Positions 1 through 63,678 of a DNA stretch of 64,000 nt are shown here, piece after piece. Position numbers and translations under genes: made by a program. The notes under the pieces were generated by a model. It was not told where the DNA came from, made no database searches, and saw only the letters and a program-made list of their open reading frames with translations. The stretch spans positions 32,001 through 96,000 of IMG/VR virus record IMGVR_UViG_2687453145_000002, one strand, 5' to 3'. This DNA comes from a virus (lineage: Duplodnaviria; Caudoviricetes). Numbering within the stretch: the stretch's first letter is position 1; every line of letters begins with the position of its first letter.

Positions 1-1
1 T

Positions 2-406
2 GACGAGGCCGCCCGCCTCGCTACTGCCAGGACCAAGGCCGAACAGGAAGCGCGCGAGGAAGAGCAGCGCCGGCAGGCTGAAATCGATGAGGTGAGAGAC
101 CATGCACAAGAACAGATCGCCCAAGCACAAGCTGATGCCGCTGCTGCTGGCGTTGAGTCTGGCCGGCTGCGCGAGCAAGCCCGCCGCCTGGCAGCCCGAG
201 CAAGTCAGTGCGCCAGCCATTCCAGCACTCCCCAAGGAAGCCCGGCAGCCGAACAGCCTGCCGTGGTGCTCGCCGACCTGCTCAGCCGGGCTGACGAAAG
301 AGCGGGTGAGCTGGCAGCAGCATATGACCGAGCTCGAGTATCAGGACTAGCTTGCGAGCTGGCCTATGACTCCCTGCGTACCGCAACCATGACACCCCGC
401 CCATAA
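2..406 (+). CDS. Rz-like i-spanin (DUF2514-like), 5' truncated by window edge
   Basis: Ala/Glu/Arg helical ORF open from base 2, C-terminal GLACE motif, lipoprotein ORF embedded in it. Confidence 0.7.
   Translation, partial: DEAARLATARTKAEQEAREEEQRRQAEIDEVRDHAQEQIAQAQADAAAAGVESGRLREQARRLAARASQCASHSSTPQGSPAAEQPAVVLADLLSRADERAGELAAAYDRARVSGLACELAYDSLRTATMTPRP
135..350 (+). CDS. Rz1-like o-spanin lipoprotein embedded in Rz
   Basis: MPLLLALSLAGC lipobox, Pro-rich mature part, +1 frame within Rz. Confidence 0.7.
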   Translation: MPLLLALSLAGCASKPAAWQPEQVSAPAIPALPKEARQPNSLPWCSPTCSAGLTKERVSWQQHMTELEYQD

Positions 407-440: not shown

Positions 441-629
441 GTGATGCAGATGAATTGGAACAGTGAAGTGGTAAGCGGTATCGATGTGACTGGGGTTATC
501 ACCCGTGTGGAGCACTACGATGGAGCCGAGGCAGTGGTTGTCCTTTCCTCTGGAGTATCTGTGGTGGTAGCTGCAGCCCACAAGCCGGTACCCGGCGATA
601 TCATCGTTGAAGGTGAGCTATCTATCTAA
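441..629 (+). CDS. Small beta-rich hypothetical protein upstream of terS
   Basis: GGAGG RBS; clear homologue at 59740..59919. Confidence 0.7.
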   Translation: MMQMNWNSEVVSGIDVTGVITRVEHYDGAEAVVVLSSGVSVVVAAAHKPVPGDIIVEGELSI

Positions 630-1505: not shown

Positions 1506-1544
1506 ATCTGGTAGCATGATGAATCCAATGCTTGGGAGCATCTT

Positions 1545-2210
1545 ATGGAAGCGGATAAAGATTTAGAGCAGCAATATCGAAAGAATCTGATGATTGTAGC
1601 TAGTGTGGTTTTTGTTTATTCCATAGCTGGCGGACAGATGGGAAATGAACTAAGTCTATTAAGCGCAAAACTTACCTTCAGTCACCCAGTATTGCTTGAA
1701 TATGCAATGGTGATAATAATGTGCTTTTTCTGGTGGCGCCATAGACAAGTTTCATACAATATTAGGCGTGATTTTGTAAAGAAAGTATATGGCAATCTTA
1801 TTATACCTAAATGGGTTTACAGGAGATTGATGCGTGAAGGGACTAAGCATATCGAACCTATATATTACGAAGGCCCTGATAGGGTGGAGATACATGCGCC
1901 TTTAAGGCCATTTTGGGATGTTCCTGAGGAGGTGGGTATCTTGTGGTTGTCAGGAGGGGTGCGTTCTGCTGATATTATTGCATATTCTTTGTATGAAAAT
2001 GAATCGACAGACAACCTGCTTAGTGATATAAAAATTAAGATGTCTTGGTTGATGAGATTCTGCTTATGTATGGCATATACACGCTCATTTATCATGATTA
2101 GTTATAAAAAGACTGAGTTTGGCGATGGCGTATTACCTACGATATTTTTTGCTATTGCCTTGGGTGGCTGGGTTATAAATCATTTTCAGCTTATTCATAT
2201 AGCTATGTAG
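1545..2210 (+). CDS. AT-rich moron membrane protein, unknown function
   Basis: Low GC, hydrophobic segments at both ends, TGnTAGCAT upstream, terminator downstream, absent from copy B. Confidence 0.8.
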   Translation: MEADKDLEQQYRKNLMIVASVVFVYSIAGGQMGNELSLLSAKLTFSHPVLLEYAMVIIMCFFWWRHRQVSYNIRRDFVKKVYGNLIIPKWVYRRLMREGTKHIEPIYYEGPDRVEIHAPLRPFWDVPEEVGILWLSGGVRSADIIAYSLYENESTDNLLSDIKIKMSWLMRFCLCMAYTRSFIMISYKKTEFGDGVLPTIFFAIALGGWVINHFQLIHIAM

Positions 2211-2231
2211 CTTGGCCATATTCATATAACT

Positions 2232-2256
2232 AACCCGCTTCGGCGGGTTTTTTATT
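2232..2256 (+). terminator. Moron terminator
   Basis: AACCCGC-TTCG-GCGGGTT plus T tract. Confidence 0.8.
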
Positions 2257-2270
2257 GCCTAAGATCCCCC

Positions 2271-3968
2271 ATGACCGAATTCGACATCTCCGCAATGACT
2301 GAGCAGGAGCAGATGGCTTACATCCGCTCGAAGCTCAGCGATAAGTGGTGGCGGATGAACAACCTCTACATGATCGAGAACGAACAGGGCCAGCTGGTGC
2401 GCTTTCGGTTGCGCCCGGCGCAGGATCTGCTGTTCAAGACCATGTGGTGGCTGAACATCATCCTCAAGGCACGACAGCTTGGGTTCTCCACCGCCATCGA
2501 CATCTATCTGCTGGACGAGGCGCTGTTCAACAAGAACATCAAGTGCGGGATCATCGCCCAGGACCTGACGGCTGCCGGCGAGATCTACCGCACCAAGATT
2601 GAAGTCCCGTTCGATAACCTGCCGGGCTGGCTCAAGGCCCAGTTCAAGGTGGTGACCCGGCGGGGCGGGGCGAATGGCGGACACATCCTGTTCCGGCATG
2701 GCTCCAGCATCCAGGTGGCTACCTCGTTCCGGTCCGGTACCGTCCAGCGCCTGCATGTCTCCGAGCACGGGAAGATCTGCGCCAAGTATCCCGAGAAGGC
2801 CAAGGAGGTGCGTACCGGTACCCTGCAGGCAATCCACCCGGGCGCCGTGGCCTTCATCGAATCAACAGCGGAAGGCGTGGGCGGCGACTTCCATGCCATG
2901 AGCATGAAGTCCCTCGAGCTGGCCCGGGCCTCCGGTGAGCTCAGCCAGCTCGACTGGAAGTTCCACTTCTTCGCCTGGTGGCAGGACCCCAAGTATCGTG
3001 CCGACGTGCCGGCATCCGGCGTGGTGATGAGCAAGACCCAGGCGGAGTATTTCGCCGCGGTCGAGAAGGCGATGGGTTGCACCATTACCGACGAGCAGCG
3101 GCAGTGGTACGTGCTGAAAGAGTCCACTCTGGGCGCCGAGATGAAGCAAGAGTTCCCCAGCACGCCGCTGGAGGCCTTCCTGACCTCTGGGCGCCGGGTG
3201 TTCGACCCCATCCATACCATGGATGCAGAGGGCGATTGCATGGCCCCGCTCATCGTCTACGACATCGACCCGGTCACTGGCAGGCGTGAGAAGGCCCGCA
3301 AGCCAGAGAAGCTGGACGAGCGTGGCCAGCGCTCCCTCGAGAACATGTTGCTGGTCTGGGAGTTGCCAGACCCCGACGAGGATTACGCCATCGGCGCCGA
3401 CGTGGCGGAAGGGCTGGAGCACGGTGACCGTTCAAGCCTCGATGTGACTGCCAAGAGCGACGGACGGCAGGTGGCCCACTGGTTCGGGCACCTCGATCCC
3501 GGGTTGTTTGCCCAGCTGCTGGCCCACGTCGGCCGCTTCTATGGTACTGCAGAGCATGGCCCGGCCTACATCGGCCCGGAGCGCAACAACCACGGTCACG
3601 CCGTGCTGCTCAAGCTCCGTGAAATCTACCCGACCCGGCGGATCTACACCCAGGAGCACCTCGACCGGGACCGCGACGACGAGACGCCACGCCTCGGCTG
3701 GCTCACCACCCGGCAGTCCAAGCCGATCTTGGTTGATGGCCTCAAGGCCCTGCTGCGTGCTGGGCAGTCCGGGATCCGCTGGATAGGCACCATTCACGAG
3801 GCAACCACCTACGTCTACGACAAGAGCGGCAGCATGAACGCCCAGGACGGCTGCTACGACGACCAGCTGATGAGCTACATGATTGCCCAAGAGATGCGCG
3901 CCCGGATGCCGGCCCGCATCGTCAAATCCGAAACCTCCCGCAAACCCAAGCACTGGATGGCCAACTGA
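2271..3968 (+). CDS. terL: Terminase large subunit (copy A)
   Basis: Walker A ILKARQLGFST, Walker B LHVSE, IESTAEG coupling motif, nuclease IGADVAEG...YDD. Confidence 0.95.
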   Translation: MTEFDISAMTEQEQMAYIRSKLSDKWWRMNNLYMIENEQGQLVRFRLRPAQDLLFKTMWWLNIILKARQLGFSTAIDIYLLDEALFNKNIKCGIIAQDLTAAGEIYRTKIEVPFDNLPGWLKAQFKVVTRRGGANGGHILFRHGSSIQVATSFRSGTVQRLHVSEHGKICAKYPEKAKEVRTGTLQAIHPGAVAFIESTAEGVGGDFHAMSMKSLELARASGELSQLDWKFHFFAWWQDPKYRADVPASGVVMSKTQAEYFAAVEKAMGCTITDEQRQWYVLKESTLGAEMKQEFPSTPLEAFLTSGRRVFDPIHTMDAEGDCMAPLIVYDIDPVTGRREKARKPEKLDERGQRSLENMLLVWELPDPDEDYAIGADVAEGLEHGDRSSLDVTAKSDGRQVAHWFGHLDPGLFAQLLAHVGRFYGTAEHGPAYIGPERNNHGHAVLLKLREIYPTRRIYTQEHLDRDRDDETPRLGWLTTRQSKPILVDGLKALLRAGQSGIRWIGTIHEATTYVYDKSGSMNAQDGCYDDQLMSYMIAQEMRARMPARIVKSETSRKPKHWMAN

Positions 3969-5157
3969 TGATCAACGCCCAACCCAAGGCCCCTGAGAAA
4001 GGTGGCCTCGATACCCCGCGCCTGCTCAAACTGATGAGCGATATCAACGGCCAGCCTGACTGGCGCTCACTTGCCAATCGCGCCTGCGCCTACTACGACA
4101 ACGATCAACTGCCACCTGAGGTGGTCAAGGTGCTCAAGGAGCGGGGCCAACCCATCACTATCCACAACCTCATTGCCCCGACTATTGATGGCGTGCTGGG
4201 GATGGAGGCCAAGAGCCGCACCGATCTGATGGTGATCGCCGATGACCATGACGATGAGCTCGAGCAGCTGGCCGAGGCCGTCAATGCCGAATACGCCGAC
4301 ATGTGCCGCCTGGGCGGACTGGACCGCGCCCGGGGCGAGGCTTACGGCGGCCAGATCAAGACCGGTGTGGGCTGGGTGGAGGTGTGCCGGCGCGATGACC
4401 CGTTCGGCCCGCGCTACAAATTCAGCAACGTCCATCGTGATGAGGTCTATTGGGACTGGCACAGCCGAGAGCCGGACCTGAGCGACTGCCGCTGGCTGAT
4501 GCGTCGCCGCTGGGTCGATCTGGATGAGGCCAAGACCATGTTCCCGAGCAAGGCTCAAGCGTTGGAGTGGGGCGTGAATGACTGGGCGGGGGTTGTCAGC
4601 TTGAGCGCCGTAGAGGGGCTCGACCCCAACCTGGTCAGCGCTTACGACGAATGGAGCCAGTTCAGTGGTAAGGAGGTGGAGTGGTGCAGCCGTGAGCGGG
4701 ATCGGGTGTTGCTGCAGGTGGTCTACTACCGCACCTATACCATGCGGCAGGTGCTGATGCTCGATTCTGGCCGGGCGCTGGAGTACGACAAGACCAATCA
4801 GTTGCACCTGGCCGCGCTCGCCATGGGCCGGGCCAGGCTGGAACGCCGCCCGGTGGCCGTGATCCGGGAGTCCTGGTTTGTCGGCCCCCATCATCTGGTT
4901 GATCGCCCCTGTACAGCTCCTCACAACATGTATCCGCTGGTGCCGTTCTGGGGATACCGGAAAGACCGCACCGGTGAGCCATACGGGCTGATTGCTCGGG
5001 CCATGCCGGCGCAAGACGAGGTGAACCTGCGGCGAATCAAGCTGACGTTCCTGCTGCAGGCCAAGCGCGTCATCATGGACAAGGACGCCACCAACATGAG
5101 CCGGGATCAGGTTCTTGAGCAGGTGGAGCGCCCGGATGGATATATCGAGCTCAACCC
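2664..5157 (+). repeat. ~2.5-kb apparently identical direct repeat, copy 1 (partner 61185..63678)
   Basis: Offset 58,521; ORF translations match in all frames; bounding mismatches at 2663/61184 and 5158/63679. Confidence 0.85.
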
Positions 5158-6094
5158 TGACCGCGCCAACAAGACCAGCGTGAGCGATGCCTTCAAGGTG
5201 GAGCAGGACTTCAACGTGGCGGCCCAGCAGTTCCAGGTGATGCAGGACTCGGTGAAGCTGATCCAGGACACCATGGGGGTTTATGCCGCCTTCCTGGGCC
5301 AGGGCTCCACCGGGCAGTCCGGCGTGGCTATCAGCAACCTGGTGGAGCAGGGGGCGACCACGCTTTCGGAGATCAACGACAACTACCGGATGGGCTGTCA
5401 GCAGGTGGGTCAGCTGGCGTTGGCCTACCTGCTGGAAGACATGGCCGGCAAGCGCAACTACAAGGTGACCGTGAACCGCGATGACCCCCGCCGCCGCAAG
5501 GCCGTGGTGATCAACGTGGAGCAGGAGGATGGCAAGCTGACCAATGATGTGACCCGGCTGCGGGCTCATATCGCCCTAGCGCCGATCCAGCAGACAGCCG
5601 CCTACAAACAGCAACTGGCCGAGCGGATGACCCAGGCCATGTCGCAACTTCCGCCAGAGGCGGCAGGTGCCTGCTTTGACCTGCTGGTCGAGCTGATGGA
5701 TGTACCGCGTAAGGCTGAGTTCGTGGAGCGGATCCGCAATGCCCTGAACATCCCGAAAGACCCGGACGAGATGAGCGACGAGGAACGCGCAGCCGCCGAG
5801 CAGCAAGCCCAGCAGGCCCAGATGCAGCAGGAGCTGGCCATGCGCGAGATGCAGGCCAAGCTGGCCGAGCTGGAGGGCAAAGCCGCCAAGTGGCAGGCAG
5901 AGGCTCAGCGCATCGCCAAGCTGACGGACTCCATCCGGTTCGAGGATGCCCTCAAGCAGGCCCAGACAGGCAAGACATTGCAGGAGATGGAGCAGTTGGC
6001 AGCCCAGCAGCAGGCGATGCAGACAGAGCAGGCAGCCCTGCAGGCGCAGCTGTTGGACACCATCCAGCAGCAGATCGACGCCATCGCGCTCTGA
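3968..6094 (+). CDS. Portal protein (P22/N4-like, with C-terminal barrel coil)
   Basis: 708 aa after terL; YYDNDQ and GVGWVEV motifs, SGVAI near C-terminus, Q-rich coiled coil. Confidence 0.9.
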   Translation: MINAQPKAPEKGGLDTPRLLKLMSDINGQPDWRSLANRACAYYDNDQLPPEVVKVLKERGQPITIHNLIAPTIDGVLGMEAKSRTDLMVIADDHDDELEQLAEAVNAEYADMCRLGGLDRARGEAYGGQIKTGVGWVEVCRRDDPFGPRYKFSNVHRDEVYWDWHSREPDLSDCRWLMRRRWVDLDEAKTMFPSKAQALEWGVNDWAGVVSLSAVEGLDPNLVSAYDEWSQFSGKEVEWCSRERDRVLLQVVYYRTYTMRQVLMLDSGRALEYDKTNQLHLAALAMGRARLERRPVAVIRESWFVGPHHLVDRPCTAPHNMYPLVPFWGYRKDRTGEPYGLIARAMPAQDEVNLRRIKLTFLLQAKRVIMDKDATNMSRDQVLEQVERPDGYIELNPDRANKTSVSDAFKVEQDFNVAAQQFQVMQDSVKLIQDTMGVYAAFLGQGSTGQSGVAISNLVEQGATTLSEINDNYRMGCQQVGQLALAYLLEDMAGKRNYKVTVNRDDPRRRKAVVINVEQEDGKLTNDVTRLRAHIALAPIQQTAAYKQQLAERMTQAMSQLPPEAAGACFDLLVELMDVPRKAEFVERIRNALNIPKDPDEMSDEERAAAEQQAQQAQMQQELAMREMQAKLAELEGKAAKWQAEAQRIAKLTDSIRFEDALKQAQTGKTLQEMEQLAAQQQAMQTEQAALQAQLLDTIQQQIDAIAL

Positions 6095-31575: not shown

Positions 31576-31776
31576 ATGTGGATTCTGTTTGCTCTGATAA
31601 TGATGGTGGTGGCGCTGAAAGCATTCAGTGTTAGTTTCACCCTAGCGTTGATACCGATAGCGATAGGGGTCTGGTGTTTCAGTAAATCCAACCGTGAGAG
31701 CCTGGATAACTTCATGGCCTTCACTTTCATCATTGTACTGATTGGTTTTGCTGTGAATGTGTTGGTTTCGCCTTAG
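31576..31776 (+). CDS. Small hydrophobic membrane protein
   Basis: GAGG RBS; almost entirely hydrophobic with one polar loop. Confidence 0.65.
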   Translation: MWILFALIMMVVALKAFSVSFTLALIPIAIGVWCFSKSNRESLDNFMAFTFIIVLIGFAVNVLVSP

Positions 31777-31958
31777 TAAGGTGTAAGTTGCGCATCACTC
31801 TCACCAAGTGATGTCTTGAACATACTGGTTTCACGGATCTATGTCACATTGCCGTTGGCTAGTTTTGTTAGGCTCAACTTAACTACCGAAATGGTATTGA
31901 TCTTATTGCTTAGTCATGGGATAAGAGGCAGACCCAACTTATGCACAGGATGTGCGTA

Positions 31959-31987
31959 TTGACAATTGGGTGCGTTTTTGGTATAGT
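31959..31987 (+). promoter_or_regulatory. Near-consensus sigma70 promoter of moron
   Basis: TTGACA-17-TATAGT with extended TGn. Confidence 0.8.
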
Positions 31988-32017
31988 ATTGCGACTCGAA
32001 AATCGATAGAGACTCGT

Positions 32018-32779
32018 ATGACCACCACTGTGTGCGATTTCATTAACAGGGTTGTTGCAAGTGATTCTCGGTGGTCAACAAAGTTAGATGATTATGGTTT
32101 CTACAACCATATCGCTTTTGTCGATGACACCGGTTTTGGAAAGTTGTCGATAAGAGGCAATCACGTCTTATGCTTAGCAGGTGACGGGAAGCTTATCGAG
32201 CAGTGGAAGCAGTGGTGGAAGGCGCCGGTTTTGTATCGGGAGCATCCTCCGGTAGTTTCCGATGCTGGGGCTGTAGTGATCTATGCAATCAATAGAGCCA
32301 CTAATCAGCTCGAGTTTGGGCTTCAATTGAGTTGCGCTCACTTAGACCCAGACACTCGCCATATACAGGCTGTTTTTTCTGGTTCTGGCGAGACGGCTGC
32401 ACTGTCAAACTGGCAATCAGCCAAATGCGCTAAAACCGCAGTAGAGCAAGCAAAGCTCAGAGACGTGTTTACAGGTGGTACTGTACGTTTCGTCAATTTG
32501 AGCACCGATGAGATGGACATTGAGGATGAATTGGATTCCCTTGATGCTGTGCTTAATCAATTGCAAGAGAGAGGGTATGTTATGAGACAAGACGACCCCA
32601 TGAAAACTATGATTCCTGTTAAAGAATTTGACGCAAAAACTATATCGGCCCTTGCATCAAACGGTTCTTTGCAGCTATCCGCTCCTTGTGGCAACGAGGC
32701 TGTTGTCTGGGATGAGGCTGCCAAGCATAGACTTGGGGCCTTCATTGATAGAGTTATAGAATCGGAAAGCCGTTCTTAA
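32018..32779 (+). CDS. Ntn-hydrolase (proteasome-beta/HslV-like) moron protein
   Basis: MTTTV start, ASDSR, LAGDG, SGSG, DVFTGG motifs; low GC; own promoter and terminator. Confidence 0.7.
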   Translation: MTTTVCDFINRVVASDSRWSTKLDDYGFYNHIAFVDDTGFGKLSIRGNHVLCLAGDGKLIEQWKQWWKAPVLYREHPPVVSDAGAVVIYAINRATNQLEFGLQLSCAHLDPDTRHIQAVFSGSGETAALSNWQSAKCAKTAVEQAKLRDVFTGGTVRFVNLSTDEMDIEDELDSLDAVLNQLQERGYVMRQDDPMKTMIPVKEFDAKTISALASNGSLQLSAPCGNEAVVWDEAAKHRLGAFIDRVIESESRS

Positions 32780-32798
32780 TCTATTGATATTATTAGCT

Positions 32799-32833
32799 TA
32801 AACCCGTGCATCATGTGCGGGTTTTTGTTTTTT
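32799..32833 (+). terminator. Moron terminator
   Basis: AAACCCG...CGGGTTT plus long T tract. Confidence 0.7.
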
Positions 32834-32977
32834 GGCTAATAGCTCTAGTAAGTGATCATAAGCGGGAACCTACAGATATCCGATGTCATTCATCTTTTCG
32901 TATTGATCTAAGTCAGCAAAATAGTTCCTGCTCTTCCGTCCCTGGTTAATTTTGTTGATAACCAGTACATGGGGGCA

Positions 32978-33424
32978 TTATTGCCCCTCTTGCCCCTCTT
33001 GCCCCTCTTGCCCCTCTTGCCCCTCTTGCCCCTCTTGCCCCTCTTGCCCCTCTTGTGTTCCTGACTTTCTGTCAGTATTTCTCATAACCGCTTTCACTTT
33101 CTTTCGCACTTCGTCAGTCATTACACTCCTGATGCTGTTCAGCAGCTCTCTGACCTCTCGCAGTTCGTCATTCAGAATCTGTGAGTTGTAGATTACTTGA
33201 GGGACAAGCACAGTGTCTGGAGACAGCGGGTGCGGAATGCTCGTACTTTTGAAGATCTGCTCACCACCACTCTCAGCAAGTTCAGCGTCTTCCTCAAAAG
33301 TCCTTTGAAGCCGATAAACGATCTCTGCGTTCATCGTTCGGCCAGCTGCAGCTGCAGCTTCATGGATGGCAGTGTGTAGCTCCCTTGGTAGGCGCAACGC
33401 AGTCTTCTGTATGTCTTTGCTCAT
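32978..33424 (-). CDS. Arc/Mnt-family repressor (Mnt-like) with (QEG)8 tail
   Basis: LRLPRELH...GRTMNAEIVYRL ribbon-helix-helix. Confidence 0.85.
   Translation of the reverse strand: MSKDIQKTALRLPRELHTAIHEAAAAAGRTMNAEIVYRLQRTFEEDAELAESGGEQIFKSTSIPHPLSPDTVLVPQVIYNSQILNDELREVRELLNSIRSVMTDEVRKKVKAVMRNTDRKSGTQEGQEGQEGQEGQEGQEGQEGQEGQ
32981..33055. repeat. Perfect 9-bp tandem repeat (TTGCCCCTC)x8+TTG
   Basis: Directly visible; encodes QEG repeats. Confidence 0.95.
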
Positions 33425-33512
33425 GAGGTGTGACTTTGGTTTGTTCAGTAAGCATTAGCTTAACAAAAGCAATAGGTGAATTCATTCGGACTTTATCAAA
33501 TCGCTTGCCTTC

Positions 33513-33557
33513 ACTATGAAGTCTAACTATCATTAATTTCGACTTCACAGTAAAGTC
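33513..33557. promoter_or_regulatory. Candidate Arc/Mnt operators
   Basis: ACTATGAAGTC / GACTTCACAGT inverted pair and GACTT..AAGTC between divergent RHH genes. Confidence 0.45.
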
Positions 33558-33576
33558 TAGGTGAGAAGGAGGAGTG

Positions 33577-33747
33577 ATGATAGAAGACAAGGTACGCAAC
33601 ACATCCCTGCGCTTACCGCGTGAGATACGCGATTGGTTAACGAACCGAGCAGCAGATAACTGCCGCAGCTTCAACGGTGAGATCACTATGATCCTGAAGC
33701 AGCAGATGGAGAGGGAGCAAGATAGTGAGAAAGCAGAGTCGGTCTGA
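33577..33747 (+). CDS. Arc-like repressor (56 aa, not in ORF track)
   Basis: AGGAGG RBS; SLRLPREIRDWL..AADNCRSFNGEI. Confidence 0.85.
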   Translation: MIEDKVRNTSLRLPREIRDWLTNRAADNCRSFNGEITMILKQQMEREQDSEKAESV

Positions 33748-33831
33748 TGCCAGAAAGAGTTCGACCCCAACTGGTGGAACAGTTGAGGCCGAGAGATGTA
33801 AACCCACCACGCAAATGATTGGAGTTACTTT

Positions 33832-34632
33832 ATGATTATACAACAACAGTATCAGCAAACCAAAGTTTTGCCAGGGCCGCTGAATTCCATGCCGGTAATC
33901 GCCGGGGTGGAGATCACTACTGATGAGGCGGGGCGGTTCAACCTGAACGCCCTTCACCGGGCCAGTCAACTTGGTTCGAGCAAAGCCCCAGCTCAGTGGT
34001 TGCGCACCAAGCATGCGCAAGAGCTGGTCGCTGAGGTGGAAAAACAAACTGTGCAGATTTGCATAGTTTCCGTTGAAGGCCGTAACGGCGGTACCTTCGC
34101 CCACGAGTTGCTTGCGATCTCCTATGCTGGCTGGATCAGCCCATCATTCCAGCTTCAGGTCAATCAGGTGTTTCTGGATTACCGTATCGGCAAGCTGGGC
34201 CCAATCACCCCACAACTGACCACCATAGAGATCCTGCAGATCGCCATGCAGTCCGAGCAAGAACGGCTGCGCCTGGAGGCCGCCAACCACGAGTTGGAAC
34301 TGCAGATGGAGGCAGCCAAACCCATGGTGGAGGCGCTGGAGAGGATCGCTTTGGCCGATGGCTCGCTGAACCTGACCGAGGCCGCCAAGGCGCTGCAACA
34401 GCAGCCGAAGAAGTTCAATCAGCACCTGTGCAGCCTGCGCTGGATCTACAAGCGTGCCGGTGGCAAGCAGTGGCTTGGTTATCAGGACAAGGTGCAGCAG
34501 GGACTGGTTGAGCACAAGGTTACGATGGTGCCCTTGGCTGATGGCGGTGAGCGTCTTTGTGAACAGGTTCGCATCACACCAAAGGGGCTGACCAAGCTGG
34601 CCCAGCAATTCTGTGTCGGGGGTGTGCAATGA
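33832..34632 (+). CDS. Antirepressor, KilA-N plus KilAC/ANT domain
   Basis: GRFNLNALHRAS, GGTF..AISYAGWISPSF; C-terminal ITPKGL. Confidence 0.85.
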   Translation: MIIQQQYQQTKVLPGPLNSMPVIAGVEITTDEAGRFNLNALHRASQLGSSKAPAQWLRTKHAQELVAEVEKQTVQICIVSVEGRNGGTFAHELLAISYAGWISPSFQLQVNQVFLDYRIGKLGPITPQLTTIEILQIAMQSEQERLRLEAANHELELQMEAAKPMVEALERIALADGSLNLTEAAKALQQQPKKFNQHLCSLRWIYKRAGGKQWLGYQDKVQQGLVEHKVTMVPLADGGERLCEQVRITPKGLTKLAQQFCVGGVQ

Positions 34633-34760
34633 GCGCCGCCCAACTACAGGATGAATTGAATGCACTGCTGGGAGAGTTGGAGGTTATCGATCTCTGTCCC
34701 CAGGAGCGCAGGGCACTGGTTGACAGGATCCAGCGCATTATGCCTGACAGATCTGAATGA
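34629..34760 (+). CDS. 43-aa helical protein coupled to antirepressor
   Basis: ATGA overlap; MSAAQLQDELNALLGELEVIDLCPQERRALVDRIQRIMPDRSE. Confidence 0.6.
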   Translation: MSAAQLQDELNALLGELEVIDLCPQERRALVDRIQRIMPDRSE

Positions 34761-34829
34761 CACCGATGGGGCTGCGGCCCCATTTTTAATACCCAAATCA
34801 GTCCGAAAATGATAAATTCAAGAAATGCA

Positions 34830-34845
34830 CTGTATGGGTATACAG
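34830..34845. promoter_or_regulatory. LexA (SOS) box
   Basis: CTGTATGGGTATACAG within extended palindrome GCACTGTAT..ATACAGTGC. Confidence 0.85.
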
Positions 34846-34887
34846 TGCTTCACAGTCGAGAGACTGGGAGAGCAAGGGGGAAATCGG

Positions 34888-35010
34888 ATGGAATCACTGC
34901 TAAGCGAACTGGAAGAGTTTGTTGAGACGCTGGACCTGGCGCCTGAGGAGGAGAACAAGATCGCGCGCATTCTGGAAAAACTTCGCGATGAAGCCACCGT
35001 GTCAGCGTGA
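34888..35010 (+). CDS. 40-aa acidic SOS-regulated protein (candidate antirepressor)
   Basis: AAGGGGG RBS, LexA box upstream, terminator-like hairpin at ~35029-35052. Confidence 0.6.
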   Translation: MESLLSELEEFVETLDLAPEEENKIARILEKLRDEATVSA

Positions 35011-35083
35011 TGCGGAAGGATTCGGATTGGCCCGCCACTGCGCGGGCTTTTCTATGCCTGCGTGATACGAGATTCTTAGGTAA

Positions 35084-35320
35084 TTTCTTGGGGCATTTTT
35101 GGGGCAAAAAGAGGGGTAAAATACGGGGAAATGCGGTGTTTGATGGGATACATCCGAGGCAATAAAACTGGCCTCAAGCCTTATGCCAAGCGGCTTGGCA
35201 ATGGATCCTGATAGAAATCAATCATTCCTTTGCCGGGAATTGTGGGGGTTGACTATTTATCTAATAAATCAATCGCTTACTGTTGGATCTTTTTTTCTTG
35301 GGGCGTCATTGGGGCAAAAA
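35084..35320. other. attP-like site: paired arm-type repeats, IHF site, core between them
   Basis: TTTCTTGGGGC-N4-TTGGGGCAAAAA at 35084 and 35294; AATCAATCGCTTA (IHF consensus) at 35267-35279; abuts integrase 3' end. Confidence 0.65.
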
Positions 35321-36557
35321 GGCCTTTTGATTGCATCTGCTCCCAGATCCTGACCGCCTCAGATTTGCTCGCCGAGGCGATCCACTTTCCGTAGACGGAT
35401 TGTAACATTTCAAGGTCAGCGTGACCCATTTGCGCTGCAATATACGCGAGATTTCCATGCGACGTCAGGTTCCAACTAGCAAACGTATGCCTAAGTTGAT
35501 AGAAGCGCCGGTATCTTACTCCGGCTCTCCTCATGATGTTGCTCCAGGCATGAGACACCCCGGCGGCGGTGAAGAACTCTTTGGCGTGTGGAACATGGGG
35601 GCCCGTCACCTTAGGCGTGAATACCGGCCTGATGCTCTGGCGCTCGATACGACCGTTCATGTCCACATCTACCGACACCACAGCACGCATGAACGACAAT
35701 GCCATCTGTGACTTGAGAGCTGCGATCACGGGCGGTTGCAGATCAACCTCCCGGGGCTCGTTGGTCTTGGGCAGTTTGAAATAGTCCGATTCGTTACTGA
35801 TGTTCCTGCTGATGACCATGACCCCTTTTTCGAGGTCGATGTCCTCCCAAGCAAGAGCCCTCAACTCGCCTGTTCTAAGGCCAGTATAGATGGCAAGGGT
35901 GATCATGTTTCGTTGCTGCTCGTGGGAGCATGCTTCCAGCAGCCGGGTGTATTCATCAAATTCGAAAGGGTCTGCCGGTGAGGTTTTTCTGGTGGTGACG
36001 GGCCTCACACCTGCTGTGAGTCTTGCTGCATCCGCAAGTAAGTTGTTCTTCTCACACCAGCGAAGCAACTGCCTGAATCGCCCAAGGTAGGTGACGATGG
36101 AGCTGGGTTTGAGTGAGATGTGCAGCTCATTGCGGATCAGCTCTATGTCCTTGGGCATCAGCGTTGAGACCTGTCGGTCCTTACCCAGGACATTGATGCA
36201 CGCCTCAATGGCGAACGGGTAGCCATGACGAGAGGTAGGCTTCAGCATCGGTTTGTGAAGCCGCCAGAAATCCTGATAGGCCTCCCAGATGGTGACGTTT
36301 CGCCGGCTTCCTCCAAATCGAGTCAGTGCTGAGCTGTCAGGGAAATGATGTGCGTAGCTGAAGGTACCGACCGCAATCTCATGCTTGATGGTTGCGAGCT
36401 TGTTGGTGGCAAACTTCACGTTCGCCTTGGTGATGGGGAGGTCGAGGACCTCCCGGCAGCGCGCCCGTTTATAGGTGAAGGTAATGCGCAGCTTTTTGCC
36501 ATGAACCTCCAATCCAGTGACTCCAGCTACTAGATCATCAAGTTTGACTCGACCCAC
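35277..36557 (-). CDS. int: Tyrosine integrase with N-terminal arm-binding domain
   Basis: TGLRTGEL, YQLRHTFAS, MGH, catalytic Y in SVYGKW. Confidence 0.95.
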   Translation of the reverse strand: MGRVKLDDLVAGVTGLEVHGKKLRITFTYKRARCREVLDLPITKANVKFATNKLATIKHEIAVGTFSYAHHFPDSSALTRFGGSRRNVTIWEAYQDFWRLHKPMLKPTSRHGYPFAIEACINVLGKDRQVSTLMPKDIELIRNELHISLKPSSIVTYLGRFRQLLRWCEKNNLLADAARLTAGVRPVTTRKTSPADPFEFDEYTRLLEACSHEQQRNMITLAIYTGLRTGELRALAWEDIDLEKGVMVISRNISNESDYFKLPKTNEPREVDLQPPVIAALKSQMALSFMRAVVSVDVDMNGRIERQSIRPVFTPKVTGPHVPHAKEFFTAAGVSHAWSNIMRRAGVRYRRFYQLRHTFASWNLTSHGNLAYIAAQMGHADLEMLQSVYGKWIASASKSEAVRIWEQMQSKGLFAPMTPQEKKIQQ

Positions 36558-59765: not shown

Positions 59766-59919
59766 TGGCATTACCGTGACCGGGGTGATCTCCAACGTGG
59801 TGGAGTATGACGGCATTCATGCCCTGGTCGTCCTGAATACCGGCGTCTCCGTCGTGGTACCGGCAACCCATGAGCCTGTACCTGGTGATGCCATCGTTGA
59901 AGGCGAGTTATCTCTCTAA
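59740..59919 (+). CDS. Homologue of 441..629
   Basis: W...VV.GI.VTGVI..V..YDG..A.VVL..GVSVVV.A.H.PVPGD.IVEGELS. Confidence 0.7.
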   Translation: MHWSDAVVNGITVTGVISNVVEYDGIHALVVLNTGVSVVVPATHEPVPGDAIVEGELSL

Positions 59920-60792
59920 ATGGCAAAGACCGACTGGGCACAGCTCAATGCAGAGTTCCTGCAGGAGCATGAAGCGACAGGCATCAGTGCGAAAGACTGG
60001 TGTGACAGCCGCGGCCTGAACTACAACTCGGCGCGTCGCTATTTGAAATCTCGGGGGCAATCCCCTGCGCAACCTGACAAATCTCGCGTAGCTGCGCAAT
60101 CTGCGCATTCCGAAGTGCGCAAAACTGCGCAATCTGCGCAAAGTGCGCAAACCAAGGGGAATGAGGCCAAGGCCAAAGGGGGAGAGCGAAGAGGGGAGAA
60201 GTCCTCCTCATCCACTCAATCCCAGCCCGAGCCTGAGCAGACCTCGAAAAACAAAGGGCGGGATGGTGCTGGCCGGTTCGTCCGGGGCGAGTACGAGGGC
60301 AACCCTAACCCGCCAGCCAACATCAAGCCCGGCATGCAGATTGCCAAGACCCATGGCGGTTATGCCAAGTACCTCGATGCCGAGGAGCTGTTCGACCAGG
60401 CTCGCGAGCTGCAACTGCGCGACGAGCTGGACTTCACCCGGGCTCGCGTCATTTCCGTCACCAAGCTGCTCAAGGGGCTGCAGCAGGACCTGGTCACCGC
60501 CACCGAGATGACCGACCGGATCGCGCTCTACGACAAGATCCTGAAAGCCGAGCAGGCCCTCGACCGCAACATCCAGCGGATTGAGTCTATCGAGCGGACC
60601 CTGAGCGCCCTTCGCATCGACGAGGTAAGTGTGCCGAAGATTGAGGAGGACACTCGCCGGATCCGGGCTGCTGCGCGCAAGCTGACCGCCGAAGCGGATA
60701 GGCTGGAGAAGGATGGTGGCAGCGAGGCCACCCCGGTCAGCGAGATGGTTTCCGAGCTCCACGACATGGGGACAGGGGGGCTGATGTCATGA
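59920..60792 (+). CDS. terS: Terminase small subunit (copy B)
   Basis: Homologous to 630..1505; overlaps terL start (ATGA). Confidence 0.85.
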   Translation: MAKTDWAQLNAEFLQEHEATGISAKDWCDSRGLNYNSARRYLKSRGQSPAQPDKSRVAAQSAHSEVRKTAQSAQSAQTKGNEAKAKGGERRGEKSSSSTQSQPEPEQTSKNKGRDGAGRFVRGEYEGNPNPPANIKPGMQIAKTHGGYAKYLDAEELFDQARELQLRDELDFTRARVISVTKLLKGLQQDLVTATEMTDRIALYDKILKAEQALDRNIQRIESIERTLSALRIDEVSVPKIEEDTRRIRAAARKLTAEADRLEKDGGSEATPVSEMVSELHDMGTGGLMS

Positions 60793-62489
60793 CTGTTCCC
60801 ATCGACGCATCTTCCATGACTGAGCAAGAGCAGATGGCCTACATCCGTTCGAAGCTCAGCGATAAGTGGTGGCGGATGAACAACCTCTACATGATCGAGA
60901 ACGAGCAGGGCCAGCTGGTACGATTTCGGCTGCGCCCAGCACAGGAGCTGCTGTTCCGGACCATGTGGTACCTGAACATCATCCTCAAGGCGCGCCAGCT
61001 TGGGTTTTCCACCGCCATCGACATCTATCTGCTGGACGAGGCGCTGTTCAACAAGAACCTCAAGTGCGGGATCATCGCCCAGGACCTGACGGCCGCCGGC
61101 GAGATCTACCGCACCAAGATTGAAGTCCCGTTCGATAACCTGCCGGGCTGGCTCAAGGCCCAGTTCAAGGTGGTGACCCGGCGTGGCGGGGCGAATGGCG
61201 GACACATCCTGTTCCGGCATGGCTCCAGCATCCAGGTGGCTACCTCGTTCCGGTCCGGTACCGTCCAGCGCCTGCATGTCTCCGAGCACGGGAAGATCTG
61301 CGCCAAGTATCCCGAGAAGGCCAAGGAGGTGCGTACCGGTACCCTGCAGGCAATCCACCCGGGCGCCGTGGCCTTCATCGAATCAACAGCGGAAGGCGTG
61401 GGCGGCGACTTCCATGCCATGAGCATGAAGTCCCTCGAGCTGGCCCGGGCCTCCGGTGAGCTCAGCCAGCTCGACTGGAAGTTCCACTTCTTCGCCTGGT
61501 GGCAGGACCCCAAGTATCGTGCCGACGTGCCGGCATCCGGCGTGGTGATGAGCAAGACCCAGGCGGAGTATTTCGCCGCGGTCGAGAAGGCGATGGGTTG
61601 CACCATTACCGACGAGCAGCGGCAGTGGTACGTGCTGAAAGAGTCCACTCTGGGCGCCGAGATGAAGCAAGAGTTCCCCAGCACGCCGCTGGAGGCCTTC
61701 CTGACCTCTGGGCGCCGGGTGTTCGACCCCATCCATACCATGGATGCAGAGGGCGATTGCATGGCCCCGCTCATCGTCTACGACATCGACCCGGTCACTG
61801 GCAGGCGTGAGAAGGCCCGCAAGCCAGAGAAGCTGGACGAGCGTGGCCAGCGCTCCCTCGAGAACATGTTGCTGGTCTGGGAGTTGCCAGACCCCGACGA
61901 GGATTACGCCATCGGCGCCGACGTGGCGGAAGGGCTGGAGCACGGTGACCGTTCAAGCCTCGATGTGACTGCCAAGAGCGACGGACGGCAGGTGGCCCAC
62001 TGGTTCGGGCACCTCGATCCCGGGTTGTTTGCCCAGCTGCTGGCCCACGTCGGCCGCTTCTATGGTACTGCAGAGCATGGCCCGGCCTACATCGGCCCGG
62101 AGCGCAACAACCACGGTCACGCCGTGCTGCTCAAGCTCCGTGAAATCTACCCGACCCGGCGGATCTACACCCAGGAGCACCTCGACCGGGACCGCGACGA
62201 CGAGACGCCACGCCTCGGCTGGCTCACCACCCGGCAGTCCAAGCCGATCTTGGTTGATGGCCTCAAGGCCCTGCTGCGTGCTGGGCAGTCCGGGATCCGC
62301 TGGATAGGCACCATTCACGAGGCAACCACCTACGTCTACGACAAGAGCGGCAGCATGAACGCCCAGGACGGCTGCTACGACGACCAGCTGATGAGCTACA
62401 TGATTGCCCAAGAGATGCGCGCCCGGATGCCGGCCCGCATCGTCAAATCCGAAACCTCCCGCAAACCCAAGCACTGGATGGCCAACTGA
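60789..62489 (+). CDS. terL: Terminase large subunit (copy B)
   Basis: Near-identical to 2271..3968. Confidence 0.95.
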   Translation: MTVPIDASSMTEQEQMAYIRSKLSDKWWRMNNLYMIENEQGQLVRFRLRPAQELLFRTMWYLNIILKARQLGFSTAIDIYLLDEALFNKNLKCGIIAQDLTAAGEIYRTKIEVPFDNLPGWLKAQFKVVTRRGGANGGHILFRHGSSIQVATSFRSGTVQRLHVSEHGKICAKYPEKAKEVRTGTLQAIHPGAVAFIESTAEGVGGDFHAMSMKSLELARASGELSQLDWKFHFFAWWQDPKYRADVPASGVVMSKTQAEYFAAVEKAMGCTITDEQRQWYVLKESTLGAEMKQEFPSTPLEAFLTSGRRVFDPIHTMDAEGDCMAPLIVYDIDPVTGRREKARKPEKLDERGQRSLENMLLVWELPDPDEDYAIGADVAEGLEHGDRSSLDVTAKSDGRQVAHWFGHLDPGLFAQLLAHVGRFYGTAEHGPAYIGPERNNHGHAVLLKLREIYPTRRIYTQEHLDRDRDDETPRLGWLTTRQSKPILVDGLKALLRAGQSGIRWIGTIHEATTYVYDKSGSMNAQDGCYDDQLMSYMIAQEMRARMPARIVKSETSRKPKHWMAN

Positions 62490-63678
62490 TGATCAACGCC
62501 CAACCCAAGGCCCCTGAGAAAGGTGGCCTCGATACCCCGCGCCTGCTCAAACTGATGAGCGATATCAACGGCCAGCCTGACTGGCGCTCACTTGCCAATC
62601 GCGCCTGCGCCTACTACGACAACGATCAACTGCCACCTGAGGTGGTCAAGGTGCTCAAGGAGCGGGGCCAACCCATCACTATCCACAACCTCATTGCCCC
62701 GACTATTGATGGCGTGCTGGGGATGGAGGCCAAGAGCCGCACCGATCTGATGGTGATCGCCGATGACCATGACGATGAGCTCGAGCAGCTGGCCGAGGCC
62801 GTCAATGCCGAATACGCCGACATGTGCCGCCTGGGCGGACTGGACCGCGCCCGGGGCGAGGCTTACGGCGGCCAGATCAAGACCGGTGTGGGCTGGGTGG
62901 AGGTGTGCCGGCGCGATGACCCGTTCGGCCCGCGCTACAAATTCAGCAACGTCCATCGTGATGAGGTCTATTGGGACTGGCACAGCCGAGAGCCGGACCT
63001 GAGCGACTGCCGCTGGCTGATGCGTCGCCGCTGGGTCGATCTGGATGAGGCCAAGACCATGTTCCCGAGCAAGGCTCAAGCGTTGGAGTGGGGCGTGAAT
63101 GACTGGGCGGGGGTTGTCAGCTTGAGCGCCGTAGAGGGGCTCGACCCCAACCTGGTCAGCGCTTACGACGAATGGAGCCAGTTCAGTGGTAAGGAGGTGG
63201 AGTGGTGCAGCCGTGAGCGGGATCGGGTGTTGCTGCAGGTGGTCTACTACCGCACCTATACCATGCGGCAGGTGCTGATGCTCGATTCTGGCCGGGCGCT
63301 GGAGTACGACAAGACCAATCAGTTGCACCTGGCCGCGCTCGCCATGGGCCGGGCCAGGCTGGAACGCCGCCCGGTGGCCGTGATCCGGGAGTCCTGGTTT
63401 GTCGGCCCCCATCATCTGGTTGATCGCCCCTGTACAGCTCCTCACAACATGTATCCGCTGGTGCCGTTCTGGGGATACCGGAAAGACCGCACCGGTGAGC
63501 CATACGGGCTGATTGCTCGGGCCATGCCGGCGCAAGACGAGGTGAACCTGCGGCGAATCAAGCTGACGTTCCTGCTGCAGGCCAAGCGCGTCATCATGGA
63601 CAAGGACGCCACCAACATGAGCCGGGATCAGGTTCTTGAGCAGGTGGAGCGCCCGGATGGATATATCGAGCTCAACCC
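61185..63678 (+). repeat. ~2.5-kb direct repeat, copy 2
   Basis: See 2664..5157. Confidence 0.85.

Follow-up and report, generated by a model that had tools for sequence, protein, structure and literature searches.

A prophage accessory gene for a proteasome-like threonine hydrolase that fits the RPC family and may have an antiphage role

Introduction

Apart from HslV and the 20S proteasome, almost all proteasome-like enzymes are orphans. One of them, RPC, is related to PPH, the phage proteasome homolog, and has been described by computation only; the accessible text of that description offers no function for it, and its Table 1 lists 79 RPC sequences (nr90) with no phage flag (Fuchs, Alva and Lupas 2021; PMC8665760). 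A search of the literature outside subscription journals found no paper on the function of these proteins.

Here we describe a prophage gene whose product and relatives fit RPC, a likeness drawn from the published description rather than from sequence. As far as the accessible part of that description goes, the two have in common an occurrence in Proteobacteria only, a proteasome-like core, a Thr1/Asp17/Lys33/Gly47 set, the lack of both a propeptide and helix H2, and a C-terminal domain without known structure. Unlike the published RPC, the present family counts 595 representatives at 50% identity and lies in proviruses, often adjoining a repressor gene. The RPC representative WP_140207863 was absent among the accessions listed for 20 clusters. 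With PPH, as that paper presents it, the protein shares the character of a phage-borne, stand-alone, compact proteasome homolog without H2; PPH, however, has about 140 residues and no C-terminal domain, compared with 253 aa and such a domain here, and it occurs in sequenced Caudovirales, in which the present family differs (see below). BPH (PDB 5ovs, 5ovu), which is among the best structural matches, has about 185 residues and, unlike the present protein, no C-terminal domain, and it is not known to be prophage-borne. The fold, a Met-Thr-Thr N-terminus without a propeptide, and the G-S-G and D-x-x-T motifs are common to HslV (ClpQ), whereas an adjacent hslU, a match to PF00227 and helix H2 are all missing here, an extra domain of 84 residues is present, and the gene is prophage-borne and additional to the HslV of the host.

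Results

By the window we mean the whole stretch of DNA that was analysed, 64,000 bases (64 kb) in length; its features are collected in Table 1. The original prediction had read in it a 253-aa ORF opening with M-T-T-T, flanked by a near-consensus promoter and a terminator, and all three were found. The ORF runs from an ATG at 32018 to a stop codon at 32777-32779, with the N-terminus MTTTVCDF. A longer frame of 275 aa, beginning at GTG 31952, opens 5′ of the -35 hexamer and, as had been pointed out, masks the N-terminal Thr. This start is disfavoured because the relatives begin with M-T-T, 170 out of 205 doing so exactly and 9 more slightly inside an over-long call.

The promoter consists of a -35 hexamer TTGACA (31959-31964) and a -10 hexamer TATAGT (31982-31987), with a 17-nt spacer and a TG directly 5′ of the -10. 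It is the sole site in the window, on both strands, that matches at 11 or more of 12 positions, four sites scoring 10/12. The transcript is predicted to start near 31994. At the other end, the hairpin of a strong terminator (32800-32824) has a stem of 11 pairs, 5 of them G-C, and a 3-nt loop, and is followed by TTGTTTTTTG. The motif ATAAGAGGCA-N7-CTTAT occurs twice without mismatch in the window, each time within the peptidase cassette. When up to three mismatches were allowed, three matches were obtained against 0.76 expected, a number reached by 6 of 100 shuffles. The position of these palindromic copies, one at the promoter and one inside the gene, suggests that expression may be regulated rather than constitutive.

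Table 1 Features of the peptidase gene and its surroundings
Feature	Position	Strand	Basis
Coding sequence, proteasome/HslV-like Thr-Ntn hydrolase fitting RPC	32018..32779	+	253 aa + stop
N-terminal Ntn-hydrolase domain, residues 1-169	32018..32524	+	VIA-align match and residue conservation
C-terminal domain, residues 170-253, alpha/beta, long last helix	32525..32776	+	model, conservation
Sigma-70-type promoter, TTGACA-17-TATAGT with TG extension	31959..31987	+	11/12 positions match
Intrinsic terminator, 11-bp stem, then T-run	32800..32834	+	sequence reading
ATAAGAGGCA-N7-CTTAT copy 1, possible operator	31921..31942	+	17 nt 5′ of -35 hexamer
ATAAGAGGCA-N7-CTTAT copy 2, within coding sequence	32150..32171	+	exact repeat
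Accessory segment, 3,001 nt: peptidase, Arc-like and antirepressor genes	31758..34758	.	blastn vs phiARM81mr
Arc-like ribbon-helix-helix regulator, convergent	32978..33424	-	PF03869 Arc E 8.2e-9; PHROG Arc-like families
Antirepressor, KilA-N + ANT domains	33832..34632	+	PF04383 E 3.5e-21; PF03374 E 3.5e-24; phrog_63, phrog_129

The residues of the catalytic set are T2, D16, K42, G55, G122-S123-G124 and D149-x-x-T152-G-G. Four motifs that had been named as catalytic elements, ASDSR, AGDG, SGSG and DVFTGG, were placed at residues 14-18, 54-57, 121-124 and 149-154, respectively. The Lys33 equivalent, left unnamed at the time, is K42 in the motif DDTGFGK. Conservation among the 205 relatives, which share down to 26-35% identity, is near-invariant: T2 is present in 191 (12 others are N-terminally cut), D16 in 197 and K42 in 204, while G55, G122, [ST]123, G124, D149 and [TS]152 are found in every one. 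In a smaller alignment, T2, D16, K42 and G55 were invariant in 49 out of 49 members. Judged from these alignments, the active site of the family is under strict selection. The equivalence of these residues to Asp17/Lys33/Gly47 rests on how the model is folded and on an HMM alignment that is weak. Aligned to beta5 by profile, though weakly, G122-S123-G124 fell on its conserved GSG and D149-x-x-T152-G-G on the conserved D-x-x-S-G-G, which we take to be Gly128-Ser129-Gly130 and Asp166/Ser169 in standard proteasome numbering.

An AF2 model of the 253-aa protein reached a pLDDT of 93.2 and a pTM of 0.89 and has the four-layer alpha-beta-beta-alpha fold of proteasome-type Ntn hydrolases. A Foldseek comparison, proposed earlier as the check on an Ntn fold, agreed with it: all 50 PDB matches listed were chains of 20S proteasome entries (best E 2.6e-4). 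An exhaustive VIA-align search gave its strongest matches to the 20S beta subunit 8adn_V (Z 12.4, rmsd 3.3, 146 aligned, model 2..169) and to BPH 5ovs_A (Z 12.4, rmsd 3.1, 142 aligned, model 2..164 on chain 1..189), followed by HslV (Z 11.6, rmsd 3.4, 137 aligned, model residue 2 on chain residue 1), Anbu (Z 11.5) and a second BPH match (Z 11.3). Over these four kinds of protein the alignments covered 137-149 residues at rmsd 3.1-3.4, and model residue 2 superposed on Thr1 of BPH, HslV and beta5i; other Ntn hydrolases gave Z 5-8 only. The proteasome-beta/HslV-like identity originally proposed is thus borne out by an Ntn fold at Z 11.5-12.4, by residue 2 lying on Thr1 and by the conserved catalytic set. 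The protein is very probably a catalytically competent proteasome-type Ntn hydrolase.

Two departures from the proteasome pattern are seen in the model. Helix H2 is absent, a lone helix (57-68) lying between strands 49-56 and 85-92. In addition, an extra C-terminal domain is present, as had been foreseen, although it has about 84 residues rather than the approximately 70 proposed. Its conserved residues are G186, A222-P223 and W231, and when modelled alone it reached a pLDDT of 81.4. No match was found between this domain and solved folds (best VIA Z 3.9, best Foldseek E 1.9). A winged-helix or RRE-like identity was considered and rejected, the Z values of 2.4-2.8 being within noise. Outside the family, the proteins most similar to it in structure as a whole protein were viral clusters of 140-170 aa, with TM 0.70-0.79 by their length, and the BFVD structural list was headed by phage proteins.

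At the sequence level, where links to HslV are weak, the protein matched phrog_1040, 'peptidase HslV family' (E 1.8e-11, residues 1-173). Searches of PDB sequences by phmmer and with the family profile gave nothing significant (best proteasome beta E 1.6), and the PF00227 Proteasome/HslV model matched 0 of 49 members at E<=1; the same model found the host HslV in all five relative-carrying genomes tested. The hhalign comparison of the family profile with E. coli HslV, or with a six-sequence HslV alignment, yielded only a spurious 15-residue match, which is of little weight given so thin an HslV profile (Neff 1.6). Pfam and NCBIfam scans assigned the protein to no family, a single NCBIfam row at E 0.046 being far below the cut-off, and none of the 5,027 models of PADLOC-DB 2.0 hit it at E<=1.

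Provirus carriage was seen at 35 IMG/VR loci. The named organisms of the relatives are all gamma-, beta- or alphaproteobacteria, most metagenomic members having no name, and one relative (L035) is broken. Neither tblastn with three diverse members (P0001, P0013 and P0052) against 50,697 sequenced phage records nor blastn of the locus against sequenced phages gave a match, and megablast of complete E. coli genomes with an E. coli-type relative (from L020) also gave none. Because the 50,697 phage records hold no match, carriage by functional phages is deduced from proviruses only.

The closest sequenced phage is Aeromonas phage phiARM81mr (KT898134). By blastn, 90.5% homology extends up to 31757 and resumes from 34759, and phiARM81mr has 51 nt in place of the 3,001-nt segment; the capsid protein is 97.5% identical despite the absence of the segment. 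The borders of the cassette were taken from this comparison. Shared contig ends (31593/31655 and 33010) were tried as borders and set aside, the right end being better explained by a 9-nt tandem repeat at 32981-33061. G+C is 0.506 over 32001-36000 as against 0.59 for the whole window, and the peptidase gene has a G+C of 0.467 and a GC3 of 0.453, whereas the giant gene beside it reaches 0.626 and 0.755. Also nearby in the window are a polyvalent virion protein, an integrase and a hydrophobic ORF of 66 aa. The original prediction had noted no ATPase partner nearby, and none was found in the window or in the 116-kb provirus record (PF00227 scan), nor does one recur in 49 related loci. The gene has the marks of an accessory gene (moron): its own promoter and terminator, an atypical composition, and presence or absence between related phages. 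As far as sequence comparison tells, it is a horizontally acquired, low-GC accessory gene in a prophage related to phiARM81mr, and it is fairly likely to be expressed independently in the lysogenic phase. Among runs on record as RNA, none contains the gene; four wastewater 'RNA-Seq' runs with it, compared as contigs only, are probably DNA.

The sole recurrent neighbour across the 49 loci is a CI-type repressor with an S24 autocleavage domain. Of 34 non-redundant relatives, 11 have the peptidase gene just downstream of this repressor; the peptidase gene follows immediately, on the same strand, in 13 of the 49 loci, which make up 9 of the 34 clusters formed at 90% identity, and two genes downstream in 2 further loci. 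The gaps between the two genes measure 101-729 nt. In two loci (L022 and L025), a gene for an N-like antiterminator follows the peptidase gene. Elsewhere, the neighbours include integrase, DinI, UmuDC-like genes, methyltransferases and a spanin, surroundings that are typical accessory slots, and CapH/CapP-like regulators lie upstream of the gene in two loci (L039 and L040). PADLOC placed the candidate defence genes PDC-S33 and PDC-S13 at most three genes away in 2 of 30 representative loci. Of 150 neighbour proteins that it scanned, only two matched PDC models, and a further six hit models for methyltransferases or HTH/protease regulators; the latter models are non-specific for defence.

Discussion

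What is new here is the size of the family, the strict selection on its active site, and its location in prophage lysogeny slots, repeatedly right behind the repressor. Such a position has a counterpart in phage lambda, where the gene order is cI-rexAB-N and rexA-rexB are repressor-linked prophage exclusion genes. The likeness is one of position: the peptidase gene is co-oriented with and 3′ of a CI repressor and, in the two loci mentioned above, 5′ of an N-like antiterminator gene. Like rexAB, it is also optional and varies between related phages. Unlike rexAB, it is one gene and not two, has no kinship to them in sequence or fold, and has an exclusion role that is only hypothetical; its product would be a soluble peptidase, in contrast to the sensor and membrane protein of rexA-rexB.

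A course of events can be proposed from these data. With a near-consensus sigma-70 promoter of its own in front and an intrinsic terminator behind, the gene could be transcribed independently of the upstream late operon, probably in the lysogen. Methionine aminopeptidase removes an initiator Met that precedes Thr; removal of Met would thus expose Thr as residue 1, with no propeptide involved. Thr1 may then act with D16 and K42 as a triad, with Gly55 at the oxyanion site and the G-S-G and D-x-x-T-G-G elements as supports, in the manner of an N-terminal-nucleophile peptidase such as HslV or the 20S beta subunits. The family-specific C-terminal domain, rather than an HslU-type ATPase, may pick the substrate or control assembly. 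Finally, the genomic context would be consistent with a peptidase that, while lysogeny lasts, attacks a protein of a phage entering the cell, which would amount to superinfection exclusion or abortive defence. Taken as a whole, this chain, an RPC-type, lysogen-expressed Thr peptidase directed against phages, is tentative, and we hold it somewhat short of even; the antiphage role itself, for which gene context is the basis, is possible to about the same degree. A more far-reaching version, which we consider rather doubtful, is that RPC proteins are widespread single-gene prophage immunity effectors made with or beside the repressor, whose C-terminal domain recognises a protein of the superinfecting phage and delivers it to the Thr1 site, or whose peptidase is unleashed on the host in abortive infection.

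The main rival to an antiphage role is a protease of the prophage switch, acting on the phage's own regulators or on SOS-type proteins and thereby stabilising lysogeny or completing induction. We regard it as unlikely. Its candidate targets would be the Ant antirepressor and the fragments left by CI cleavage, along with Arc/Cro-like or UmuD-like proteins. The surroundings of the gene (repressors, antirepressor, DinI, UmuD-like) fit such a protease equally well as they fit defence: the one recurrent neighbour is an autocleaving repressor, Arc-like and Ant genes share the same 3-kb segment, one cluster of relatives has DinI next to the gene and three have UmuD/UmuC-like genes there, and an HTH + ImmA/CapP-like metalloprotease pair is also found beside relatives. 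In Staphylococcus aureus, according to the accessible text of a preprint, a host protease must clear the CI fragment to complete induction (10.1101/2022.09.18.507959). The gene is nevertheless optional, phiARM81mr lacking the whole segment and most temperate phages having no such gene. Moreover, the immunity systems that it accompanies are of unrelated types (CI, Arc/Ant, ImmR/ImmA-like), and it is also found at non-immunity sites, beside spanin and tail fibre genes or a methyltransferase. This variety of regulators and sites argues against a core switch role, since a core component would be expected with one regulator type.

Other explanations start from the enzyme itself. An extra HslV-like core, working alone or with an unfoldase taken over from the host, for instance HslU, could serve as a lysogenic-conversion or proteostasis factor; the HslV-type fold, the M-T-T start resembling that of the host HslV (start codon then TTIV), the presence of HslV in all five host genomes and the accessory-gene anatomy would agree with this. 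Since H2 is missing, an 84-residue C-terminal domain has been added and profile comparison detects no HslV similarity, the docking surface for HslU is unlikely to have been kept, and we consider such a factor quite improbable. We give similarly low standing to a non-protease with the same Thr1 chemistry, be it a monomeric sequence-specific ligase/transpeptidase like connectase or a small-molecule amidohydrolase. Connectase aligned at Z 7.1-7.7 with alignments extending to model residue 249-251, the C-terminal domain is packed on the core with high confidence (the pTM given above), and the accessible text on the new proteasome homologs reports ring-incompatible features in several of them and describes connectase as a ligase (PMC8665760). 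Against this, ring-forming peptidases (Z 11.5-12.4) clearly outscore all other matches, the supports of proteasome type, G-S-G and D-x-x-[ST]-G-G, are conserved in full, and the model has helix H1, whereas connectase, as described in the same source, lacks the first helix pair. Least probable by far is a silent or decaying passenger gene without current function. The broken relative and the lack of the gene in runs on record as RNA would agree with decay, but the ORF is intact between a near-consensus promoter and a terminator, and the catalytic residues have stayed near-invariant in 205 relatives of a family with 595 representatives at 50% identity. An antiphage role for the RPC-type peptidase is the reading we carry forward, at the tentative strength given above.

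In summary, analysis of this prophage locus gives an orphan family a hypothesis that can be tested on one small gene, with clear catalytic-dead controls, T2A and K42A, and routine phage plating as the read-out. Should neither phage exclusion nor action on the phage's own regulators hold, the gene would be one more uncharacterised prophage accessory gene. If its target were repressor or antirepressor proteins, it would add a new layer to the lysis-lysogeny switch. If phage exclusion is true, the peptidase would represent a new enzymatic principle in bacterial immunity: the first proteasome-family antiphage weapon, and the first function among 22 orphan proteasome homologs.

Results

The identity of the protein was settled by its structure, the family libraries being nearly silent. 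Pfam gave no family even at E 10, NCBIfam and PADLOC gave nothing usable, PDB sequence searches gave no significant match, and none of the 49 relatives matched the Proteasome model PF00227 at E ≤ 1; the exception was phrog_1040 ('peptidase HslV family'), which matched residues 1-173 (E 1.8e-11). An AlphaFold2 model built from the 49-sequence alignment reached pLDDT 93.2 and pTM 0.89. All 50 PDB matches listed by Foldseek were chains of 20S proteasome entries (best E 2.6e-4, with modest TM of 0.32-0.50). Exhaustive alignment with VIA-align placed the model with a microsporidian 20S beta subunit (Z 12.4, rmsd 3.3, 146 aligned), Thiobacillus BPH (Z 12.4, rmsd 3.1, 142 aligned), Thermotoga HslV (Z 11.6) and Anbu (Z 11.5), and other Ntn hydrolases (acid ceramidase, NAAA, penicillin acylases) followed at Z 5-8. 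Residue 1 of the BPH, HslV and beta5i chains superposes on model residue 2. The predicted model shows a proteasome-type Ntn fold, in agreement with the proteasome-beta/HslV-like fold of the original prediction.

The motifs on which that prediction was built occur in the order it gave (ASDSR at residues 14-18, AGDG at 54-57, SGSG at 121-124 and DVFTGG at 149-154). Invariant in the 49-sequence alignment were M1, T2, T3, D16, R18, W19, S20, D36, D37, F40, K42, G55, G122, G124, A128 and D149. In a set of 205 relatives, which takes in the best 150 of 595 representatives at 50% identity, T2 was found in 191 (12 of the others being N-terminally cut), D16 in 197 and K42 in 204, and every member kept G55, G122, [ST]123, G124, D149 and [TS]152. 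A weak HMM alignment to beta5 placed G-S-G onto G-S-G and D-x-x-T-G-G onto D-x-x-S-G-G. From the predicted model and this weak alignment, we take the conserved residues to occupy the topological positions of Thr1, Asp17, Lys33, Gly47, Ser129, Asp166 and Ser169. Judged by these alignments, the active site is complete and strictly conserved, with the catalytic set under strict selection. The propeptide is absent.

The extra C-terminal domain foreseen in the original prediction is present, its length being 84 residues rather than about 70. It is a small alpha/beta unit with a long final helix and conserved G186, A222-P223 and W231, gave pLDDT 81.4 when folded alone, and had no match among solved structures (best VIA Z 3.9, best Foldseek E 1.9).

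The peptidase gene has its own transcription signals (see table below). Its promoter, TTGACA-17-TATAGT, matches 11 of 12 consensus positions and was the sole site at ≥11/12 when both strands of the 64,000-base window were scanned, 10/12 being reached by four sites; the promoter, the 253-aa frame opening with M-T-T-T and the terminator were thus all recovered as originally described. A mechanical ORF list starts the gene at GTG 31952. This long frame was rejected and the short form taken as the gene, because its GTG stands 5' of the -35 hexamer and 170 of the 205 relatives open with exactly M-T-T; the earlier claim that the longer start hides the N-terminal Thr is borne out accordingly. The partly palindromic ATAAGAGGCA-N7-CTTAT occurs twice in exact form in this region, the copies being 229 nt apart, with no third exact copy in the window. 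They may be an operator pair or a recombination scar, and hint that the label 'constitutive' is perhaps too simple for this promoter.

Features of the peptidase region, in window coordinates
Feature	Position	Strand	Details
Polyvalent protein, 3,643 aa	20571-31502	+	LPD38 (E 1e-49), ddrB-ParB (E 3e-36) and methyltransferase domains
Hydrophobic ORF, 66 aa	31576-31776	+	Between giant gene and cassette; no family match
Accessory cassette	31758-34758		Peptidase, Arc-like and Ant genes
ATAAGAGGCA-N7-CTTAT, copy 1	31921-31942		17 nt 5' of -35 hexamer
Promoter TTGACA	31959-31964	+	-35 hexamer
Promoter TATAGT	31982-31987	+	Second hexamer; 17-nt spacer with TG extension
Peptidase ORF	32018-32779	+	ATG start; 253 codons; N-terminus MTTTVCDF
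ATAAGAGGCA-N7-CTTAT, copy 2	32150-32171		Within peptidase gene
Terminator	32800-32824	+	11-pair hairpin, then TTGTTTTTTG
9-nt tandem repeat TTGCCCCTC	32981-33061		About 9 copies, inside 3' end of minus-strand Arc-like gene

No run on record as RNA carries the peptidase gene. Four wastewater runs, probably of DNA, each yielded a contig of 1,356-1,418 nt spanning 31593/31655-33010 with 0-6 differences; the cassette therefore circulates in such samples, with nothing implied on transcription. Three of the four also held a contig fusing 33183 to 34166, a variant that skips 982 nt, so that the Arc-like gene and the Ant gene each lose their 5' part. The TTGCCCCTC repeat encodes a repeated tripeptide tail on the Arc-like protein; metagenome contigs break there, and it could be a length-variable tract.

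The window belongs to a 116-kb provirus record. Upstream of the peptidase gene lie, in order, genes for the small and large terminase, portal and capsid, then for the tail fibre and internal virion proteins, and finally, directly 5' of the peptidase region, the polyvalent-protein ORF, whose counterpart in Aeromonas phage phiARM81mr is annotated as a virion structural protein. Downstream, the Arc-like gene runs convergently, and genes for a KilA-N/ANT antirepressor and an integrase follow. As predicted, no ATPase was found among the neighbours on either side in the window. In its capsid protein the prophage shares 97.5% identity with phiARM81mr. DNA homology to this phage (90.5%), which takes in most of the 66-aa ORF, ends at 31757 and restarts at 34759, so that 51 nt in phiARM81mr stand against 3,001 nt in the prophage carrying the peptidase, Arc-like and Ant genes. 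G+C and GC3 are 46.7% and 45% in the peptidase gene versus 62.6% and 75.5% in the adjoining giant gene. This contrast and the phiARM81mr comparison indicate that the gene is accessory and was acquired recently; as it also brings its own transcription signals, it is, on these genomic grounds, a moron. Two related prophages stand in tandem (window 552-5479 and 59842-64000): over 3,195 nt the terminase and portal region recurs with 98.3% identity, and for the small-terminase region the figure is 85%; the record covers the accessory region of the first only, and the peptidase gene is single-copy in it.

A word-indexed search gave 68 relatives, nearly all of about 240-280 residues (one of 148), and an exhaustive profile search gave 595 representatives at E ≤ 1e-3, of which 188, almost all full length, reached E ≤ 1e-30. 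Where the source gives a name, it is 'hypothetical'. All organisms named in these records are Proteobacteria: Enterobacterales, Pseudomonas, Vibrio, Aeromonas, Pseudolysobacter, Methylococcaceae, Cupriavidus, Methylopumilus, Komagataeibacter and a Rhodospirillales MAG. Canonical HslV was present in all five host genomes tested, and the prophage gene is therefore an addition and no replacement. The Pantoea genome with a relative holds, besides HslV, a second, weaker PF00227 match (L057, G002:C1:1818147-1818692, E 3.5e-8, 271-aa frame), which could be a further proteasome homolog, for instance Anbu.

The locus set comprised 35 provirus loci, 13 full-length bacterial-genome loci and the window (49 in all, 34 clusters at 90% protein identity). 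Clustering of all neighbours within three genes brought out a single recurrent partner: a CI-type repressor that carries an S24 domain (phrog_4). In at least 13 loci (nine clusters) its gene is the next one upstream, in the same orientation, and in two more it stands two genes upstream, with gaps of 101-729 nt; as some loci end shortly beyond the peptidase gene, these counts are lower bounds. An N-like antiterminator gene comes next in two loci (L022 and L025), and another (L038) has a full divergent O-cII-cro/cI arrangement. The slot behind the repressor corresponds to the rexA-rexB position on the lambda map. Other neighbours were DinI with a methyltransferase (one cluster, six loci), UmuD/UmuC-like genes (three clusters) and, in further loci, integrase, spanin with tail fibre, and toxin-antitoxin genes. 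A provirus copy (L035:3568-4312) is broken, with a 143-aa frame left and tblastn matches to residues 1-250. In two Pseudomonas-type loci (L039:6316-7273 and L040:6352-7276), genes for an HTH regulator (capH match, E 5e-12) and an ImmA/CapP-like metalloprotease (capP match, E 4e-18) precede the relative; such DNA-damage-responsive regulator pairs occur in defence systems and in mobile-element immunity.

Of 169 neighbour proteins, 150 were scanned against PADLOC, so that 30 of the 33 representative loci were covered. There were two hits to candidate defence models, PDC-S33 (L001:7599-8819, E 3.5e-91) and PDC-S13 (L017:5651-6487, E 7.6e-125), one to three genes downstream of peptidase relatives. 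Methyltransferase models picked up one protein, the scan also recovered the CapH/CapP-like proteins from L039 and L040, and one repressor gave a weak RmrA match; the 150 proteins gave no further matches.

Discussion

The study that named the RPC family describes it as restricted to Proteobacteria, without helix H2 (like the phage proteasome homolog PPH), without a propeptide, with a C-terminal domain that has no structural match, and known from computation alone (Fuchs, Alva and Lupas, 2021; PMC8665760). HslV has H1 and H2, whereas our model has one helix there (57-68). PPH-like viral clusters of 140-170 residues are the nearest structural neighbours outside the peptidase's own family in the ESM Atlas. 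By these shared features, the peptidase probably belongs to RPC. Three diverse family members gave no match in 50,697 sequenced phage genomes, which agrees with the table of that paper, where RPC is unflagged for phages (PMC8665760); carriage by active phages therefore rests on proviruses only. The peptidase is an added member of a family already in print, probably RPC, and what is new is its prophage accessory-gene biology and the repeated repressor linkage.

The peptidase has neither a propeptide nor an unfoldase partner. Its gene comes with a promoter and terminator of its own and is foreign in composition; it is present or absent between close phages, and its relatives are placed repeatedly in lysogeny-associated slots. 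Methionine aminopeptidase takes off Met before Thr. In the peptidase, this removal would expose Thr1, and the enzyme would hydrolyse peptide bonds, with the C-terminal domain, in place of HslU, giving substrate choice or assembly control. The gene is probably transcribed in the lysogen, where the peptidase may guard the cell against other phages through proteolysis of an incoming phage protein or through abortive self-damage. Protection of the lysogen is the reading that we tentatively prefer, because prophages keep such genes in repressor-linked and att-proximal accessory slots, because the gene is optional and patchy, and because candidate defence genes are found nearby. The neighbouring CI, Arc/Ant, DinI, UmuD-like and ImmA-like genes speak for its main rival, a protease of the prophage's own switch, which we consider rather unlikely. 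We regard as improbable both a host-physiology factor that borrows a host unfoldase and a connectase-like ligase or small-molecule amidase, and a silent passenger as very improbable indeed. The structural half of the original prediction, a stand-alone proteasome-beta/HslV-like protein, is supported; its functional half, a lysogen-expressed antiphage or host-modifying system, is plausible and unproven.

As a possible first case of an orphan proteasome homolog with a known biological role, the peptidase is a clean, small and testable candidate.
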